DNA from: Cyanidioschyzon merolae
Taxonomy: Eukaryota
Assembly: GCA_000091205.1 (NCBI GenBank)
Contig: AP006498.2
Length of the DNA: 64,000 nucleotides
Reading direction: 5' to 3' (one strand)
In this document: positions 3,091 to 59,099 of the stretch, in pieces
How the letters are laid out: every line of letters starts with the position of its first letter
Position numbering within the stretch: position 1 is the stretch's first letter
The notes under the pieces: model-generated
The model's input: only the letters and a program-made list of their open reading frames with translations
Databases searched by the model: none
Told to the model about the DNA's origin: nothing
Translations under genes and position numbers: made by a program

Positions 3091-4284
3091 ATGAACTCGT
3101 CTCGAGTATTCGAGGAGAACGTGACTCTCGAGAAACAGGTTGGCATCTGGTCGCGTCTAGGGCTGTCCACGGAGAACGCTGAGCTTGCGGCCTCAAAGCA
3201 AATTCGGCGGAAACACCCGCACGGCAGTCGACGGGCCCGGCTCCTTCGTGAGCACCCCGAGGTCTCCAAGCTCTATGGTACCAACAAAAAGTCTGCGTTA
3301 TACGTCGTTCTGCTTGTTGCGCTGCAGCTTGGCGTGGCTGTGTTGCTTGGCACAAGTGGCCGCACCTCCTGGGTCAGCGCAGCGGTGCTCGCGTATGTTT
3401 TTGGCGCTGTGGTGGACCACGCTCAGTGGGTGCTCATTCACGACGCGACACATAACCTCATTTTAGAGTCAGTTGTGCTCAATCGTCTAGTACTTTGTAT
3501 AGCGAATACGATTCACGTGCTTCCCTCGGGGATGATGTTCCGATACTATCATATTCTGCACCATATCGAGCTCAACCGTGTGCAGCGGGACCCCGATGTG
3601 CCCGCCGCGTGGGAGGCGCGCCTCGTAGGCAACTCGAGCTGGCGCAAGGCTCTGTGGCTGGCGCTGTTTTTCGTTTTCCAGAGTTTGCGTCTGGTTTCTT
3701 ACAGCCACCGCATACCGAACATGCGCGAGTACGTCTGGTTTGGCATCAACACAGTGGTGAACTTGGTAGCCATGGTTGGCGTTTGGCTTCTAGGCGGTTG
3801 GATCAGTATTTTTTACTTGACCCTGTCCAGCATCTTCAGTGTTGGGTTACATCCGTTAGGCGCTCGTTGGATTCAAGAGCACTATCCGACGCTACCGTTC
3901 CAGAGCACCTACTCGTACTACGGTTGGGCGAACAGGGTCGCGTTCAACATTGGTTTCCACAACGAGCATCACGATCTGCCGAGTGTGCCCTGGAACAAGC
4001 TGCCAAAGTTGAAGAAAATGGCTCCTGAGTTTTACGATACCTTGTTCGCCTATCGCTCGTACCGCCAGCTCTTGAAAGAGTTTATTCTGGATCCTCGATG
4101 GTCATTGCTGCGACGATGGGAGGCGGACCTGGCCGCTGCACAGAAAGAGCGTCTCGAGCAGGACGCGGGCGACGCTGGCAAGGAACCCGCGACGGTACCC
4201 CCGTCAACTGAAGAGTGCGAGTGCGCCGCCGACGCGCCAGCCAAGCCGCCCGTTGACGACTGGACAGACATGGCTTTACGGTGA
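3091..4284 (+). CDS. DES1: Sphingolipid delta4-desaturase (dihydroceramide desaturase, DES1/DEGS family), with an acidic C-terminal extension
   Basis: ATG at 3091. Lipid_DES-like N-terminus ('HGSRRARLLREHPEVSKLYG'). Three histidine boxes: HDATHN, HILHH and HNEHHDLP. Multiple hydrophobic segments. 397 aa. Confidence 0.9.
   Translation: MNSSRVFEENVTLEKQVGIWSRLGLSTENAELAASKQIRRKHPHGSRRARLLREHPEVSKLYGTNKKSALYVVLLVALQLGVAVLLGTSGRTSWVSAAVLAYVFGAVVDHAQWVLIHDATHNLILESVVLNRLVLCIANTIHVLPSGMMFRYYHILHHIELNRVQRDPDVPAAWEARLVGNSSWRKALWLALFFVFQSLRLVSYSHRIPNMREYVWFGINTVVNLVAMVGVWLLGGWISIFYLTLSSIFSVGLHPLGARWIQEHYPTLPFQSTYSYYGWANRVAFNIGFHNEHHDLPSVPWNKLPKLKKMAPEFYDTLFAYRSYRQLLKEFILDPRWSLLRRWEADLAAAQKERLEQDAGDAGKEPATVPPSTEECECAADAPAKPPVDDWTDMALR

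Positions 4285-5209: not shown

Positions 5210-5241
<32 letters not shown>
5208..5241. repeat. (CAAG)n microsatellite, ~8 units
   Basis: Direct read: caagcaagcaagcaagcaagcaagcaagcaa. Confidence 0.95.
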
Positions 5242-5430
5242 CCAGACACCAGAGGCGCATCAATGAGTCCATTGTTCAAGTGATCGAATCAGTGTTTCGC
5301 TTTGGATGAGCGATCTGGGGTCTCTTTGCAACGTGCGAGCAACCGAGGAGCGTGTCTGTTATGTCTCATCTGCGCGTTAGGATAGCCATCGCGCATGCTG
5401 ACAATACGCTGTGATGCCATTCGATGGACC

Positions 5431-5446
5431 GGGGGGGGGGGGGGGG
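5431..5446. repeat. Homopolymeric G16 tract (C16 on the minus strand)
   Basis: Direct read of 16 consecutive G, about 215 bp upstream of the coiled-coil gene ATG. Confidence 0.95.
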
Positions 5447-5662
5447 TGCACAACCCGCGCACCATCGCGATCACATCGTCTTCGAACGATTTGGGATATA
5501 TATGTACATTGCTATTCAATACGAATCGACCGTTGCAACCTCCCGCGCGCAGACTCGAATCGCCACTGCCGATCCCGGGGGGCTAGAACCGAACACCGCC
5601 TCCTCCGGCTGGTCGTCGACGTCGGCGTGCACGACAAGGCGTTTAAAGCGTCACCTGAAGCT

Positions 5663-7111
5663 ATGTTTTCGTCAGGGGAGCGCTTCTTCGGTTCCGTGCA
5701 ACGGAAACTTCGATATAGTGATGCGAGTTCTTCGGAAACATCGGAGGCGCAACAGGGCGGCGAATCGCCGACACTATCGTGCATTCTTCGAGAGCACACA
5801 GCTGAGCTGCGAAAGGCGCAGACGAAACGCCTCGGAGTGCGCCAGCGAGCAGCTGCCCGGCCGGCACTGCGTGATACAACAAACACAGTGAAGACGGTTT
5901 CTGGTGAAGCGGGGGTTGCGGCGACGTCGGCAGCGCCCGAAACGGGACCGGGGGTCGAGGAAACCAAAAACCCGGTTGCGCCAGCGCCTTGGGTCCAAAA
6001 GCACTCGCCAGCTGCAAGAGCGCCGAGCCCCACGCGCGATACCCTTACAGCAGAACGGCAACGTGTAGGTTCTCAGGGAAACAGTGCTCGTGGAGTGCCA
6101 GCGCGCACTTCGGCTGACACAGCTGTTGCACGGAAGCCAGCGCGCTGCCGAAACGAGTTGCGTGTTCAACCAGAGAACGAGTCCTCTGCTCCTGTCGCTG
6201 GTGCTGCACAAAACCAGAACGCCCAGCTGGTACTCGAGCTTGCCAAGCGAGATGCTTTGATCGCGTCGTTGCAACGAAGGTGTGCGCAACTTGAAATGGA
6301 CCTCGCCGACGATCGGCAAATGGAGCAACTGCTCGATGGTTATCGCGAAAAGCTGGATACAGCTGCTGAAGAGAATCGCACTCTAGAGGAGGCCCTCAGA
6401 ATAGAACGTCAAAATCAGCAAGCACTCCAGGAAAAACTTGCATCCTATAAAGAGCGGCTCGCAGCATGGCCAGAAAAGCTCCGAGCCGAAACGCGGGCCC
6501 TCGAGGCAACCCACGAATATCAGTCAAAGGAAGCGCGATTGCGCATACAGCGACTCGAAGCGGAGAAGCACCAACTGCAGGATGAGTTGCAACAAAGCTG
6601 GGACACCGTCGCGAGTTTGCGAGCCGAGCTTGCGAGCGTGCGGGAAGAGAACGCGGAGGCCGTGCGCGAGGAGACCCAGCGCATGCGCCGCGACTACGAG
6701 CAGAAGCTTCTACAAGCGCTCAAGGAGCTCGAAGAGCAGTTCGATGCATATCGACAGGAAGCAACCGAGGCGCTCGGTCGGTGGCAGCGTCGATGTATCG
6801 AGATGGAACGGGAGCATTGCGAAATGTCGGAGCTTCTTCGCCACTATCGACAGAAAAGTGAAGCGTTGACTCGCTCCCGGGACGCGCTCGAGCGGCAATT
6901 GCAGGACCAGATAACATTCGCCGCAACCACTATAGAGAGCAAAGAGGCTGTCATCGGACAACTCGATTCTGAAATAGAGGCTCTGCAGAACCGGATTGGC
7001 GAACTACAGGCTCAGATCGATGACCTGGAACTTGGAGATACTCCAGCTGGGAGCGACGAGCTCGCTATCTGTGCCGCATCGGCGCCACGTCGTACGACCT
7101 TGACCCGGTAG
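5663..7111 (+). CDS. Coiled-coil protein of unknown function. The supplied ORF starts at 5411, but the first plausible ATG is 5663 (MFSSGERFF...).
   Basis: 482 aa from the ATG at 5663. The C-terminal ~300 aa are strongly heptad-like and rich in E/Q/R/L ('LQEKLASYKERLAAW', 'RIQRLEAEKHQLQDELQQ'). No enzymatic motif was recognised. The upstream part of the ORF crosses the poly-G tract and is probably not coding. Confidence 0.55.
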   Translation: MFSSGERFFGSVQRKLRYSDASSSETSEAQQGGESPTLSCILREHTAELRKAQTKRLGVRQRAAARPALRDTTNTVKTVSGEAGVAATSAAPETGPGVEETKNPVAPAPWVQKHSPAARAPSPTRDTLTAERQRVGSQGNSARGVPARTSADTAVARKPARCRNELRVQPENESSAPVAGAAQNQNAQLVLELAKRDALIASLQRRCAQLEMDLADDRQMEQLLDGYREKLDTAAEENRTLEEALRIERQNQQALQEKLASYKERLAAWPEKLRAETRALEATHEYQSKEARLRIQRLEAEKHQLQDELQQSWDTVASLRAELASVREENAEAVREETQRMRRDYEQKLLQALKELEEQFDAYRQEATEALGRWQRRCIEMEREHCEMSELLRHYRQKSEALTRSRDALERQLQDQITFAATTIESKEAVIGQLDSEIEALQNRIGELQAQIDDLELGDTPAGSDELAICAASAPRRTTLTR

Positions 7112-8948: not shown

Positions 8949-9167
8949 ACTGGGGTGATCAGTGCGTGTTTTGGGCTTGTGTGCTAGAACCAGATATTAC
9001 CACGACGTTGGATTCTGAGATTCGGACTATATGGCATAGGAGCGCTCGTGTGGGTTTTGTATCGGATGGGATTTGACGTCACGGGAATTTTACGGATGTC
9101 TCGTGGTCAACGGGTGCGCGAATAGACAAGTCTATGGTGCTGGAAGCGGGCATGGCGTGAAGATATT

Positions 9168-9193
9168 CAAAAAATGGACGGAACTGGAAAAAG
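9168..9193 (-). terminator. Pol III-type T-run terminators downstream of the tRNA 5' half (minus-strand CTTTTTCC, then ATTTTTTG)
   Basis: + strand ggaaaaag (9186..9193) and caaaaaat (9168..9175) lie immediately 3' of the T-loop end of the gene on the minus strand. Confidence 0.45.
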
Positions 9194-9202
9194 ATTTGAT
9201 TT

Positions 9203-9315
9203 GGAATCGAACCCACGGCCATTGGATTAAAAGTCCAATGCTCTACCGCTGAGCTACGTTGGCTGCGCACGGCGCGTCGAATGCTCAATTCGCGGTGCGA
9301 TCGCCAACGGTGGGG
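9203..9315 (-). tRNA. trnK-UUU: Permuted tRNA-Lys(UUU) gene on the minus strand. The 3' half (T-stem 3' strand, acceptor 3' strand and discriminator; + coords 9302..9314/5) lies upstream of the 5' half (acceptor 5' strand through T-loop; + coords 9263..9205). A 38-nt intervening sequence separates them.
   Basis: Minus-strand read: GAATT-CCCCACCGTTGGCG-[atcgcaccgcgaattgagcattcgacgcgccgtgcgca]-GCCAACG TA GCTC AGCGGTA GAGC A TTGGA CTTTTAA TCCAA TGGCC GTGGG TTCGATT CC. The 5' half folds into a canonical acceptor 5' strand, D-arm, anticodon arm (loop CUUUUAA, anticodon UUU), variable loop and T-stem 5' strand plus T-loop. It lacks the T-stem 3' strand and acceptor 3' strand. The exact complement (CCCAC + CGTTGGC + G) sits 38 nt upstream. 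That gives perfect 7-bp acceptor and 5-bp T-stem pairing with a junction in the T-loop. Chance occurrence of the 12-13-nt complement is negligible. This architecture matches the permuted tRNAs described in Cyanidioschyzon merolae and some prasinophytes. Confidence 0.78.
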
Positions 9316-9344
9316 AATTCGCAGCAATGTACATTGTTCAAAAT

Positions 9345-9356
9345 TGATATATATAG
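9345..9356 (-). promoter_or_regulatory. TATA-like element upstream of the permuted tRNA (minus-strand TCTATATATATCAA), ~30 nt 5' of the 3' half
   Basis: + strand gatatatatag at 9345..9356. Permuted tRNA genes have their internal A/B boxes out of order, so they are expected to rely on an upstream promoter. Confidence 0.4.
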
Positions 9357-11402
9357 ACATGGTTTGAAGCGTGCAGAGAATCGCGGCAACGTGTTGACGC
9401 TGGTGCGTGCACGGCACTCGCATCAGATTCCAGTGGAACGTTGAACTGCTCGTTCTGTTCCTGAATCTCTTTTTTTTGTATATTTAGTCTTTATTTTCAA
9501 TGCGCAGCAATAAAGGCTTACGGATTCACGGGTAATTTTTGGGTGCTCGGTTTTCGTTTTTGCGTAGCTCATTCGAATCTCACGTCGATGGCCTGCGTTG
9601 CGTCACTGGAATCCAGCGCATTCGCGACGCCCTCAAGCGGCGGTTCCGCGCCTAACACATATCATCACCATCATCATCCAGTTCCTATGGGTAAGCTTGG
9701 ACGCTTCTGATTTGCTTATGTGTAGCATGCGCACATCATGTATGCTGCATGTTTTCCATCATTCTGTTTCATGGCGACTCGTAGGTGCAGTAACTCGCAT
9801 CGCTAATTTGATGGGATATAAACGCGACGTCGTTTCTTGATGACTTGTTCACAAGCTCAAGTCGGAGGTCCACTAAAGTCGTCACATAAAATAAACGTTT
9901 TTCAAAGAAACAAAGTCTCCGCTCTCTACCGCCATCGGCCAAACGTTATTCGTGAGCACCTTGATGCCCTTTGAGTTATGCTCTGAGAGACTCGTATCCC
10001 TTCCATTCGGACGAAAGAGGCTCTTGCATTGGGAACTGAGTCATCGCAGCGATCGCTTCTCGTGGGGAATGCGTCATCGCTTTGCAGGACGGGGCACGAG
10101 ACGGATCGAAATTGCTCGGACGCTGCTCCATTTTAGATTTCGCTTCAAGTACTTGCTCCATCATAGGCAATATCGCTTTTCAGAAATCCTCCATGGAATG
10201 GGACAGCGTTCGTTTGGACGCGCAACGCAAAGCGTACTCGTCAATGGGATCGCCGAGAACAAGCCCGCGACCAAAGGGTACGGCACCGATCGTGGAAACG
10301 GAGGAACAGCACCGCGGCCAGCCTTGTGTACCCGTCAACAGCACGCATCGGTCGAGGAAGCAAGTCTTCACGTGCATCAGAGCGGTGCTCGGATGACGAG
10401 AAGAAAGGATTGTAGCCGACGTCTGAGAACATCTGATCGCAGCCAAGTGGCACCGATGCGAGCGGCGCATGACGGCTGTATTCAAAGAATATGAAACTGG
10501 CGAGCGGAGTGCAGATTGCAACCACAGTCTGTGCATGAAATGCTTGAACAGTTGTCGAAAGCAGCAATACCTGGAGTGGAACGCTGATATCAGCATCATT
10601 CGGCTGTAGGCAACGAAGTTGAAGGGCATGGGGAGCCCCGCGTATTTAAAGTCTGAAACCTGGACGACGAAAAGGTACAAGTGGCACGAAAATCTCGCAA
10701 AAGAAATCCATGGAGGAACAGTGGGGCATTTCGCGTTTGTTCGCTTTTTGATCGTACGTAAGTGTGGAAACCCAACCGCCTTGCCGACAACTACGTAGTC
10801 GCGATACGCCGTCAACTGTAAACGGGCCAACGGTATTGAAACGGAGTCTGCTGATAACGAGTACCGCAGCCGTCCTCAACACGCTCAGACGCTCCCAGGA
10901 CTGACCCGAGAGGCGCCCCAGCGATGCCGCGCTCAGGGTTTGTAGTGCCGAACATCGCACGGGCGCCGAACAAGCCTTTACCAGTTTAGACGATTTTCGC
11001 CACTGTATGTCCATTCGATGAATTTTCACAACATCTCTGACCTGATATAAGCCTCCAAATAAAACAACTCGACACTAGTGGCGACAACGGATGGCACCAA
11101 CTAACCATATCCTCTATATGGACTGGAGCTCAGCAAAGTTATCGCTCCGAAATACACCTCTCCAATAGCTAAGATAAAGCATTTCTACCTAGCCTATAGC
11201 ATTCCCCAACGAGTACGTGTCCTACTGGTGTCCGAAGAGCTCCCAAATACCTGGCTTCGTACTAGATGCTCTGGCTTCTGCTTCGGATTCGCAGACTCGC
11301 CGATCGTTGCCGAGCCTGTGGGGCCTCCGGTCGATGCCATCGAAAAGAAATTTCGATTCGCTTCCTCGGTAGCGTATTGCCACTTTTCGAGAAACGCTTT
11401 GC

Positions 11403-25919: not shown

Positions 25920-26909
25920 TCAGCTCGCCTCCAGCGGATGCTGGAGCGCTCCAGCAATTGCTTTTTCAACGAAAGGTGGCAGAACGAAGGCAGACTCGTG
26001 CATCTCGGGACTGTAGTAGCGCAGGTGACGTTGCAGTTTTTCACTGGGTCGCCGAGCCGCGTGTCGTGGTCGACCGCCGTTGCGCCATACCGTTCCCTTT
26101 CCACAGAGCAGGAATCCTATCTGGCCACTCGGATAGGTCGGAACGCTCGCTGAAGCGTACTCAACCACATCGAAGATATTGCGAAGGATGCGCACAACAC
26201 TGACGATGAGATCAAGGTGCAACCAAAAACTCTCCCCCTGAACACATGCAATGCCACCCTCCCGAAGAGCGGCATACATCGATCTGAAGAAGGGTTCCTG
26301 ATAAAGACTTTCCGCTGGACCCAGCGGATCTGAAGAGTCCGTGATGATCACATCAAACTGCGACTGATGCTGTTGCATGAAAGCCGCTCCATCCATGATC
26401 GCGATCGACACTTTGGCGTTGGTTCCATCGAGTGCGCCCCCGGAAACCCCTGGTAGATAGTCCCGACTCACTCGTATCACATCTTCGTCCAACTCGCAAA
26501 GCACAACTTTTTCAAGCATCTTATCCACAGCGTCGTGTCGCAGAACCTCCCGCAGCACGCCGCCGTCGCCGCCGCCAACCACCAGCACCCGCTCGGGTCG
26601 CGGGTGTGCAAACATCGGCAAGTGTGTGATCATCTCCTGGTACGCAAACTCGTCTCGTTCTGTGACCTGAATAGCTCCATCGAGAACCAATACACGGCCG
26701 TGTGCTCTGGAGTCAAAAACCAAAATGTCTTGGAAGCGAGAGCGCCCCTGGTACAGAACGCGCTGAACCTCCAGTGCCAGCGCCTGCCCCGGCCACAGGG
26801 GGCTTCGTTCCATGAACCAACCTCCTTGGATACATTCGACCAACTCACGGCCATTTGTAGCGGCTGAGTCCCGATCAGCATTAAGCGGACTAGGATTTTG
26901 TGTATTCAT
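25920..26909 (-). CDS. SPDS: Spermidine synthase (aminopropyltransferase, SpeE/SPDS family). The ORF runs on to 27260, but the plausible start is the ATG at 26909 (MNTQNPSPL...).
   Basis: 'ERVLVVGGGDGGVLREVLRH' (the GGGDGG SAM/dcSAM-binding signature), 'VDKMLEKVVLCELDEDVI', 'FDVIITDSSDPLGPAESLYQEPFF' and 'GESFWLHLDLI' are characteristic of spermidine synthases. ~329 aa from 26909. Confidence 0.9.
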   Translation of the reverse strand: MNTQNPSPLNADRDSAATNGRELVECIQGGWFMERSPLWPGQALALEVQRVLYQGRSRFQDILVFDSRAHGRVLVLDGAIQVTERDEFAYQEMITHLPMFAHPRPERVLVVGGGDGGVLREVLRHDAVDKMLEKVVLCELDEDVIRVSRDYLPGVSGGALDGTNAKVSIAIMDGAAFMQQHQSQFDVIITDSSDPLGPAESLYQEPFFRSMYAALREGGIACVQGESFWLHLDLIVSVVRILRNIFDVVEYASASVPTYPSGQIGFLLCGKGTVWRNGGRPRHAARRPSEKLQRHLRYYSPEMHESAFVLPPFVEKAIAGALQHPLEAS

Positions 26910-27256
26910 CTGGTGTAGGTGCTCCCAAAGCGGAAACGCTGGATGCGTTCCAAGCACGTGCTCCTTAGCGCAGCAGCCGCTGCGTACGTCGTACCGAGGC
27001 GCCGCACGCCGTTGCTGCTTCGGGATTCCCGGCAGCGATTTGCGTTCGCGGCATATGATCGTCGAAGCAGGCGTCAGCGGTCGCTTGTTCATGACAAGGA
27101 GGCACCATATGTCGAGCTGGCGTCCGTCAGGGCCTCGTACGGGCGCTGCCTGTACCCGAGAGCAATCACGGATCCAGCGGATCGAGGTAAGATGTATCGA
27201 TTTTTCAGTATGAAAAAGAGCAGTGGCCTTCTTCTCGTATTGTCGGGTATGAGTAT

Positions 27257-27566
27257 GCATCCACGCAATTCAGCTACGATTCATCCACGTCTCCGTATTG
27301 CAAGGAGCAGCAATCCTCTTCTCACATTTTCGGGTATCATTAGGCATCCACGCAATCCAGGCACGATTCATCCACGTCTCCGTATTGCAAGGAGCAGCAA
27401 TCCTCTTCTCACATTTTCGGGTATCATTAGGCATCCACGGAATCCAGGCACGATTCATCCACGTCTCCGTATTGCAAGGAGCAGCAATCCTCTTCTCACA
27501 TTTTCGGGTATCATTAGGCATCCACGCAATCCAGCTACGATGCATCCACGTCTCCGTATTGCAAAA
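27257..27566. repeat. Perfect or near-perfect 87-bp tandem repeat, ~3.6 units (unit gcatccacgcaat...gggtatcattag)
   Basis: Unit starts read at 27257, 27344, 27431 and 27518 (period 87). It lies just upstream of the spermidine synthase ATG. It is in frame in + ORF 26919..27674, giving a 29-aa peptide repeat (HPRNSATIHPRLRIARSSNPLLTFSGIIR). Confidence 0.9.
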
Positions 27567-57302: not shown

Positions 57303-59099
57303 ATGTGGTGTTTCGTGACTGGACGGTGTGCTCCACTTTGGGGGGTTAACACAAACAGCACTTCGGTGACAGCTCGGTCTCGATGGAGGACGGCTGTCTG
57401 CGGCGGCCAGCAGCAGAGGTGCACAAGACGCACAAAGCTGGCATCGAGGCGTCCCTGCCGGGCTAGCGCTAGTGACCCGAACTTCTGGCGAGACGTGGCG
57501 CGCTCAGTGTCCGAGCAGGGCGAGCTGGCGACTTCGCGAGCTCCTGTGCGTCGAGAGCGACCTCCTCCGCAATGGGTGGCGCCGCCGCCCGGCTTTGAAC
57601 TCGATACGAGCGGCGAAAGCAGTTCGACTTGGGCTTCATGGCGCGCGGCGGCAGAGGCAGCGCAAGCCGAGCAAGAGGCGGTGCAAGAGCGGCTTGAGCG
57701 TGGCGAACCTGTGCGTGATATGACCGCTGAACGAAACTTCTGGCGGAGCGCAGCGGCTGAACTAGGCGCACCGTTGGACCCCGGCAGAACGGCAGCCGAG
57801 CTACGCACTGCAGCAGGCGGGTTGGCGGAGCGTCCTTCGGAGCATAATCGCAGCGAAGAGATTGGGAGCATCGATTCGAACATTCCTGAATCGGATGAGG
57901 AGTGGGACCCCGACACCTCCTGGATGCAAATGTATGCGTCAGACGCTGTTGAATTCGTTTCGGGAACCGAATCTGCTGATGATAATCTTCAAGGGACACT
58001 TTGGGGCGCCGCTCTGGGATCCGAGCAAGCAGCACGCGAACGTTCATCCACATCCTTGCAGTCGTTATCCGCAGAATGGGACACGAAGGAGCGCATTCCT
58101 GATTCCGGGGCAGAAGCTGCAGACGAGGAGGAAACCTTGGAGCCGCGCGATCCGAAGAAGGAGACAGCATTCTGGCGGGGTGCGGCCCAGGAGCTGCTTG
58201 GGGCATCCACGGGAGCTACGTCGGATGCGTTCGCGACTCGCTCGACCACGTCGCACAGCGCAGACGGGAGTGCCACGCAGGACTCCGAAGAGGAAACCTG
58301 GGAGCCGCGCGATCCGAAGAAGGAGACAGCATTCTGGCGGGGTGCGGCCCAGGAGCTGCTTGGGGCATCCACGGGAGCTACGTCGGATGCGTTCGCGACT
58401 CGCTCGACCACGTCGCACAGCGCAGACGGGAGTGCCACGCAGGACTCCGAAGAGGAAACCTGGGAGCCGCGCGATCCGAAGAAGGAGACAGCATTCTGGC
58501 GGGGTGCGGCCCAGGAGCTGCTTGGGGCATCCACGGGAGCTACGTCGGATGCGTTCGCGACTCGCTCGACCACGTCGCACAGCGCAGACGGGAGTGCCAC
58601 GCAGGACTCCGAAGAGGAAACCTGGGAGCCGCGCGATCCGAAGAAGGAGACAGCATTCTGGCGGGGTGCGGCTCAAGACATCATCGAGAGCCTTCCGACA
58701 CAAATCGAACTCGGTGTGGATGCACAGTCAAGCGCCAGCACTCCCGCCGTTCCCGATGCGCATGCCGGAACTGGTGATCCCGACGTTACAGCCGAAGAGC
58801 CCGTAGGCCCAGCTGAAGCCTGGGCTGCCTGGCGTGCCGCCCGAGCTTCTTCTAAGAACGTGTCCGCTTTACCCGCTCCTGTGGCTGAGACGCACCCAGA
58901 ACCTCTTTCTGAAACAGAGATCTGGATTCAGTGGCGAGAACAGCAAAGAAAAACCTGGGCAGGAGCCCTCAACGACCTGAACCGTAACCGTCCGCGAGAA
59001 CAGCAAGTTGCGCGACCCGAGAAAAGCACCGTTGATCGCTGGCGCCATGTTGCCGCAGAACTATCACAAGACAGCCCACAAAGCGAGGAGAACTCATAA
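57303..59099 (+). CDS. Repeat-containing acidic protein with about ten degenerate 'xxFWRxAAxEL' motifs, including three perfect 54-aa tandem repeats
   Basis: ATG at 57303. The protein is 598 aa. Recurring motifs: DPNFWRDVARSV, ERNFWRSAAAELG, ETAFWRGAAQELLGAS (x3) and ETAFWRGAAQDII, plus W-containing variants (EAWAAWRAARAS, TEIWIQWREQQRK, VDRWRHVAAELS). Three-plus units of 'EETWEPRDPKKETAFWRGAAQELLGASTGATSDAFATRSTTSHSADGSATQDSE'. Confidence 0.6.
   Translation: MWCFVTGRCAPLWGVNTNSTSVTARSRWRTAVCGGQQQRCTRRTKLASRRPCRASASDPNFWRDVARSVSEQGELATSRAPVRRERPPPQWVAPPPGFELDTSGESSSTWASWRAAAEAAQAEQEAVQERLERGEPVRDMTAERNFWRSAAAELGAPLDPGRTAAELRTAAGGLAERPSEHNRSEEIGSIDSNIPESDEEWDPDTSWMQMYASDAVEFVSGTESADDNLQGTLWGAALGSEQAARERSSTSLQSLSAEWDTKERIPDSGAEAADEEETLEPRDPKKETAFWRGAAQELLGASTGATSDAFATRSTTSHSADGSATQDSEEETWEPRDPKKETAFWRGAAQELLGASTGATSDAFATRSTTSHSADGSATQDSEEETWEPRDPKKETAFWRGAAQELLGASTGATSDAFATRSTTSHSADGSATQDSEEETWEPRDPKKETAFWRGAAQDIIESLPTQIELGVDAQSSASTPAVPDAHAGTGDPDVTAEEPVGPAEAWAAWRAARASSKNVSALPAPVAETHPEPLSETEIWIQWREQQRKTWAGALNDLNRNRPREQQVARPEKSTVDRWRHVAAELSQDSPQSEENS
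58139..58680. repeat. Perfect 162-bp tandem repeat, ~3.3 units, inside the repeat-protein CDS
   Basis: Unit starts (ggagccgcgcgatccgaag...) at 58139, 58301, 58463 and 58625, with exactly 162-bp spacing. The units looked identical by eye. Confidence 0.9.

Follow-up and report, generated by a model that had tools for sequence, protein, structure and literature searches.

The locus lies between positions 9357 and 9169 on the minus strand of the window, as we call the whole 64-kb stretch of DNA that was analysed, and consists of two blocks of tRNA sequence with their flanking elements. A 3' piece of 14 nt (9315..9302) sits 38 nt upstream of a 58-nt 5' piece (9263..9206), both on the minus strand, and every element that an earlier note on this DNA had described was found in its place when that strand was read directly. 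In the order in which they would be transcribed, the parts are as follows (the slash within a bulge marks the predicted cut).

9357..9344, minus strand: TATA-like box TCTATATATATCAA, presumed to serve as the upstream Pol III promoter element; 28 nt separate it from the start of the 3' piece
9316..9335, minus strand: leader, in the 28 nt between the TATA-like box and the 3' piece; predicted to be removed by the splicing endonuclease
[quoted passage not shown]
9317..9316, minus strand: leader UU, the first two bases of a 3-nt bulge
9302..9315, minus strand: 3' piece, tRNA positions 60-73, with C60, the T-stem 3' strand CCCAC, the acceptor 3' strand CGTTGGC and the discriminator G73
9314..9302, minus strand: 13-mer CCCACCGTTGGCG, the 3' piece without C60
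9264..9301, minus strand: intervening sequence (spacer) ATCGCACCGCGAATTGAGCATTCGACGCGCCGTGCGCA, 38 nt, linking G73 to G1; predicted in the MFE fold to form a hairpin atop the acceptor stem
9206..9263, minus strand: 5' piece, tRNA positions 1-59, with a match to the Rfam tRNA model and, after joining, an ARAGORN cloverleaf
9188..9205, minus strand: trailer UCCAAAUCAAAUC and, after it, the T5 run; the AU/U bulge takes its third base from the start of the trailer
9192..9188, minus strand: T5 run, the presumed Pol III terminator, 13 nt after U59
9174..9169, minus strand: T6 run, 13 nt beyond the T5 run, which may act as a back-up terminator

The 5' piece (9263..9206, minus strand) reads GCCAACG-TA-GCTC-AGCGGTA-GAGC-A-TTGGA-CTTTTAA-TCCAA-TGGCC-GTGGG-TTCGAT and comprises the acceptor strand GCCAACG, U8, a D arm with G18G19, a UUU anticodon arm, the variable loop UGGCC, the T-stem strand GUGGG and the T-loop bases UUCGAU. 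The block from GCCAACG to GTGGGTTCGATT spans 9263..9205 on the same strand, where the trailer before the T5 run is TCCAAATCAAATC. [quoted passage not shown]

Taken linearly, the locus looks like a tRNA-Lys gene truncated in the T-loop. This description, given in the earlier note, agrees with the profile search, in which the Rfam tRNA model (RF00005) scores 40.3 bits against a gathering score of 29 with a match (9257..9198) that covers model positions 7-64 of 71 only. ARAGORN called no tRNA in the linear window, as had been foreseen for standard scanners, and a permissive Rfam scan of the whole window returned no other tRNA piece. An additional Rfam match to YrlA (Y RNA-like) over 9209..9314 was rejected: at 18 bits it stays below the gathering score of 69 (E = 0.5), and we regard it as a by-product of the tRNA-like module of the YrlA family.

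When the two pieces were joined in silico, ARAGORN called a tRNA-Lys(ttt) of 72 nt whose stems consist of Watson-Crick pairs throughout, and the consensus elements U8, G15:C48, G18G19, U33 and U54U55C56 can be read directly in it. The 13-mer CCCACCGTTGGCG is exactly complementary to what the 5' piece leaves unpaired, giving GTGGG/CCCAC in the T-stem and GCCAACG/CGTTGGC in the seven pairs of the acceptor stem. It has a single exact occurrence in the 64-kb window, and 100 shuffles that preserved dinucleotides did not produce it once; when up to 2 mismatches are tolerated, the window holds 2 matches against 2.03 expected. Since the downstream block stops inside the T-loop, the upstream block supplies exactly the missing parts and the 13-mer is both unique and absent from the shuffles, the arrangement is not a product of chance.

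The precursor was folded without constraints as a 148-nt RNA (9335 to 9188). Its MFE structure is a permuted cloverleaf of -48.9 kcal/mol (z = -2.35 against shuffles), in which the acceptor stem is closed over the spacer hairpin, the D, anticodon and T stems are present, and leader and trailer are paired beside the T-stem. For this last pairing the MFE fold prefers a slipped helix, GAAUU/GAUUC with bulges of 3 nt and 1 nt, over the canonical BHB register, which evaluates to -47.4 kcal/mol, only 1.5 kcal/mol above the minimum. In the canonical register, helix h is the T-stem GUGGG/CCCAC and the central helix H pairs the T-loop UUCG (9211..9208) with the leader CGAA (9321..9318) over 4 bp, leaving two bulges of 3 nt, UU/C on the leader side and AU/U on the trailer side. 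Two candidates were considered for the outer helix h': one adjacent G:C pair, which costs energy (-43.7), and a 3-bp UUG/CAA helix beyond a loop (-47.5). The latter was rejected as part of the motif, being lost in one environmental strain, L004. The motif predicted at the junction is a relaxed BHB in which the outer helix h' is missing or very weak, so that the search for a BHB between leader and trailer suggested in the earlier note had a positive outcome. We do not count the slipped MFE helix against it, because the canonical register lies within 1.5 kcal/mol, matches the published junction and belongs to a motif that is recognised by protein.

By the rule known from canonical 37/38 introns, with their anticodon-intron pair, the splicing endonuclease leaves two bases of each bulge on the 5' side of its cut. 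Applied to the canonical register, this rule ends the 5' piece at U59 (9206) and starts the 3' piece at C60 (9315), and the junction in this model is therefore 59/60, with a predicted mature T-loop of UUCGAUC. The missing part had been said to lie 38 nt upstream, which holds for the length of the spacer; the piece itself, however, has 14 nt from C60 (9315) and not 13, and the junction falls at 59/60 and not at the 60/61 which that count implied. The repeated motif reported at both junctions also exists, in a shorter form: the sequence common to GAATTCC and GATTCC is ATTCC and not AATTCC. It reflects B-box-like and T-loop-like sequences on both sides; the leader CGAA must complement UUCG.

The window could be assigned to an organism through its protein-coding genes. 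Nine of its ten long ORFs are exact matches to C. merolae 10D proteins (BAM81910-BAM81928), with CMP325C, CMP331C and CMP343C of the CMP3xxC series among their locus tags, and the GC content of 55% is consistent with C. merolae. The tenth, ORF 25920..27260 on the minus strand, is the only one for which the protein collection has no exact match, probably because the gene was annotated with another start; at and beyond the 5' end of this ORF there is an 87-bp tandem repeat (27230..27564, 3.9 copies, 94% matches). Another tandem repeat, of 162 bp (58124..58672, 3.4 copies, 99% identical), encodes 54-aa units inside the hypothetical protein CMP343C (57303..59099), which is alone in its 90%-identity cluster, although environmental relatives exist for most of the genes nearby. 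Just upstream of ORF 5411..7111, at 5210..5241, there is a perfect (GCAA)8 microsatellite.

The permuted tRNA-Lys(UUU) gene of C. merolae was reportedly first described by Soma et al. in 2007 (Science 318:450). Eleven permuted tRNA genes of this alga are listed in Table 1 of a review by Soma from 2014, and one of them is Lys(TTT), type IV (59/60), with 38 bp and no intron (PMC3978253). The locus agrees with this entry in organism, in the anticodon TTT, in its 38-nt spacer, in the absence of an intron and in the junction 59/60, on which the BHB geometry and the published table coincide. The earlier reading of a permuted tRNA-Lys(UUU) gene with its 3' half upstream is thus upheld both by the perfect 72-nt tRNA obtained on joining and by comparison with the published C. 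merolae set, as that note had proposed. The identity is one of organism, anticodon, junction, spacer length, intron absence and flanking signals, that is, of attributes rather than of nucleotide sequence, and no difference from the published type IV gene was found in any compared feature, the upstream TATA-like box and the downstream T-stretch included. Because Table 1 agrees with our locus in anticodon, junction, spacer length and the missing intron, we equate the gene with that of Soma et al., and we are almost certain that the locus is the single nuclear cytoplasmic tRNA-Lys(UUU) gene of C. merolae 10D, on the CMP (chromosome 16) contig, circularly permuted, of type IV and published in 2007. 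[quoted passage not shown] The gene is already known, and it is the founding example of its class.

The signals around the two pieces follow what is described for the class. In most C. merolae permuted tRNA genes a TATA-like sequence precedes the 3'-half by no more than 50 bp; a T-stretch follows the 5'-half, and the spacer has no signals (PMC3978253). Here the TATA-like box (9357..9344) lies within this distance, 28 nt from the 3' piece, and the T5 run (9192..9188) and the T6 run (9174..9169) follow downstream, all as the earlier note had them. The 38-nt spacer has neither four T in a row nor anything TATA-like, and its length falls inside the published range of 7-74 nt. The TATA-like box is presumed to act as a Pol III promoter element that sets the transcription start downstream of it.

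The earlier note had also explained the need for an upstream promoter by A and B boxes standing out of order. An upstream start is indeed needed, but for another reason. On the minus strand the 5' piece carries the A box TAGCTCAGCGG at 9256..9246 and, colinear with it, a complete B-box consensus GGTTCGATTCC at 9213..9203, of which the last three bases come from the trailer, whose TCC restores GGTTCGANTCC. Although this type IV gene is permuted, the order of its internal promoter elements is thus intact; a start just upstream of the A box would instead give a transcript without the 3' piece. C. merolae has been reported to be without TFIIIC box-binding subunits. We considered that the internal promoter might nevertheless drive such a truncated transcript as a regulatory or decoy RNA, or that the colinear boxes, together with a repeat of GCGAATT, might be relics of a recent tandem duplication from which the permutation arose, and we judge this pair of ideas improbable. 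The GCGAATT sequence occurs twice, 29 nt apart, in the leader (9322..9316, minus strand) and in the spacer (9293..9287, minus strand), and could be a remnant of such a duplication or a chance occurrence. The spacer hairpin itself can be written as CGCGAAU-UGAGC-AUUCG(A)CGCG, and the spacer also has a T-loop-like ATTCGA.

With the upstream promoter and the permuted precursor, processing may be envisaged as follows. RNA polymerase III would start downstream of the TATA-like box and read through the leader, the 3' piece with positions 60-73, the spacer of 38 nt, the 5' piece with positions 1-59 and the trailer before stopping at the T5 run. The precursor would fold into a cloverleaf with its acceptor stem closed by the spacer hairpin and its T-loop open, and pairing of the leader CGAA with the T-loop UUCG beside the T-stem would form the relaxed BHB, with the bulges UU/C (leader) and AU/U (trailer). 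The tRNA-splicing endonuclease would then cut after the second base of each bulge and tRNA ligase would join U59 to C60, producing a circular RNA, which RNase P and tRNase Z would probably open at G1 and after G73, removing the spacer; CCA would then be added. The expected junction sequence is ...GUGGGUUCGAU/CCCCACCGUUGGCG-CCA, and over the junction the mature tRNA-Lys(UUU) would read ...GGUUCGAU-CCCCACCGUUGGCG-CCA. The enzymes named are those that we infer to act on the Lys(UUU) precursor. Circular intermediates, mature ends and aminoacylation have been demonstrated experimentally for the permuted tRNAs of C. merolae in general (PMC3978253), and by analogy the Lys(UUU) gene would be expressed, pass through a circular intermediate and yield an aminoacylated tRNA.

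A BHB at the junction would equally be expected of a split tRNA of the Nanoarchaeum type, in which two separate transcripts are ligated in trans and no circle arises, and the two routes look alike in the sequence. However, the two pieces lie only 38 nt apart on one strand, the spacer between them holds neither a T-run terminator nor a TATA-like element, and spacers without signals are found in all C. merolae permuted genes, for which circular intermediates are documented (PMC3978253). We therefore consider joining in trans highly improbable at this locus and retain the permuted gene with a single transcript.

The permuted gene could also be followed in natural populations. Strains resembling C. 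merolae and ~98% identical to 10D at the locus (L001-L006, L010, L011 and L013, on contigs of up to 152 kb) come from hot-spring and other metagenomes (JGI 3300005573, 3300050360 and 3300027863; ENA ERZ27247228 and ERZ27247235; Logan SRR31784488). Seven such environmental contigs, ~98% identical to the window, keep the same permuted layout; four were reached through the neighbouring AHA1-like gene and three through a metagenome scan with the anticodon arm. These relatives show no change in either tRNA piece, the stretch TGCTG-CGAA-TT, the BHB core, the TATA-like box, the T5 run or the T6 run. The TATA-like box TCTATATATATCAA is the same in all five aligned strains while adjoining columns vary, and the leader TGCTGCGAATT is kept while the stretch just upstream of it differs in L004, where ~10 nt have diverged locally between the box and the part of the leader that is conserved. 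The remaining differences are one T-to-C change in the trailer and a change of the second spacer base from T to A (L011 and L013). This pattern fits a functional unit, in strains that, at ~98% identity, are too close for covariation; the search for divergent relatives with the AHA1-like gene and the anticodon-arm metagenome scan returned only strains of this similarity.

Four other matches of the metagenome scan were set aside, as they are contiguous tRNA-Lys(UUU) genes of unrelated organisms on AT-rich or bacterial-type contigs. A contiguous tRNA-Lys(UUU) was observed on L008 (596..667, minus strand), a 30%-GC contig with a papain-like protease fragment that belongs to an unrelated eukaryote. 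Between positions 8 and 46 this tRNA has the same sequence as that of C. merolae; it has a U-U mismatch at 5:68 in its acceptor stem and carries the T-loop TTCGATC, which weakly suggests that C60 was correctly assigned.

The invariance of the unit bears on the possibility that the downstream block is merely a tRNA-Lys pseudogene truncated in the T-loop and that the upstream 13-mer is a fortuitous match. Such a view could draw on the linear Rfam match, limited to model positions 7-64, and on the failure of ARAGORN to call anything. Yet the 13-mer, with its single occurrence in the window and none in 100 shuffles, stands on the same strand, 38 nt upstream, and completes the T-stem and seven acceptor pairs; the gene is the only Lys(UUU) gene in the literature for a genome that needs one; and the whole unit is unchanged in seven related strains while nearby bases vary. 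A pseudogene is, on these grounds, extremely improbable.

The probability that the region is instead protein-coding, with a secondary resemblance to a tRNA, is practically negligible: a 114-aa ATG ORF (9079..9423, minus strand) does cover the entire unit and was called as a gene by automatic annotators on L001 (3675..4019) and L003 (3677..4021), but it belongs to no Pfam family, overlies a complete unit of promoter, tRNA and terminator, and is of a size (~100 aa) that is common by chance at 55% GC, 18 ORFs of at least 60 aa overlapping the 2.5-kb stretch, and from the ORFs at 3091 and 11403, which are BAM81910 and BAM81913 with two entries between them against three larger ORFs (566, 534 and 180 aa), we infer a further point against it. 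Probably an RNA gene has here been miscalled as a protein gene.

Other permuted tRNA genes share some features with the Lys(UUU) gene. The type IV genes for Ala(UGC) and Arg(CCU) of C. merolae, both located outside the window, share the 59/60 T-loop junction and the same presumed processing; their spacers are of 8 and 23 bp compared with 38 here, and Arg(CCU) has an intron at 14/15. The permuted genes of Ostreococcus, Micromonas and the Bigelowiella natans nucleomorph (Maruyama et al. 2010) likewise have the 3' half upstream, a BHB-like junction and detected circular intermediates. They belong to the green lineage, however, none of them is Lys(UUU), and their junction is at 37/38 in the anticodon loop, except for one O. 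tauri gene flagged as atypical at 15/16. The archaeon Thermofilum pendens has two permuted genes, tRNA-iMet and tRNA-Tyr, with the 59/60 T-loop junction (type IV) found here (Chan, Cozen & Lowe 2011, PMC3218864), but they encode CCA, have spacers of 7 and 1 nt and carry a 37/38 intron in both cases; circular intermediates are on record for the algal genes. T-loop junctions are known only in C. merolae and T. pendens. The locus had been put forward as the strongest taxonomic clue in the window, shared between C. merolae and the prasinophytes; it does point to the C. merolae type, whereas the prasinophyte alternative falls away, because the green-algal junctions are at 37/38, with one at 15/16, and a T-loop junction indicates the red alga.

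As the Lys(UUU) gene has been in the literature since 2007, its recovery brings no new biology, and its value is that of a positive control for an architecture recognised from raw sequence. Permuted tRNA genes are a standing blind spot of tRNA scanners, tRNAscan-SE having found only 30 of the 43 tRNA genes of C. merolae, and they bear on the evolution of disrupted tRNA genes. In them an essential RNA is stored in scrambled form and restored through a circular intermediate by the machinery of intron splicing, and in environmental populations of C. merolae-like algae this permuted layout is stable.
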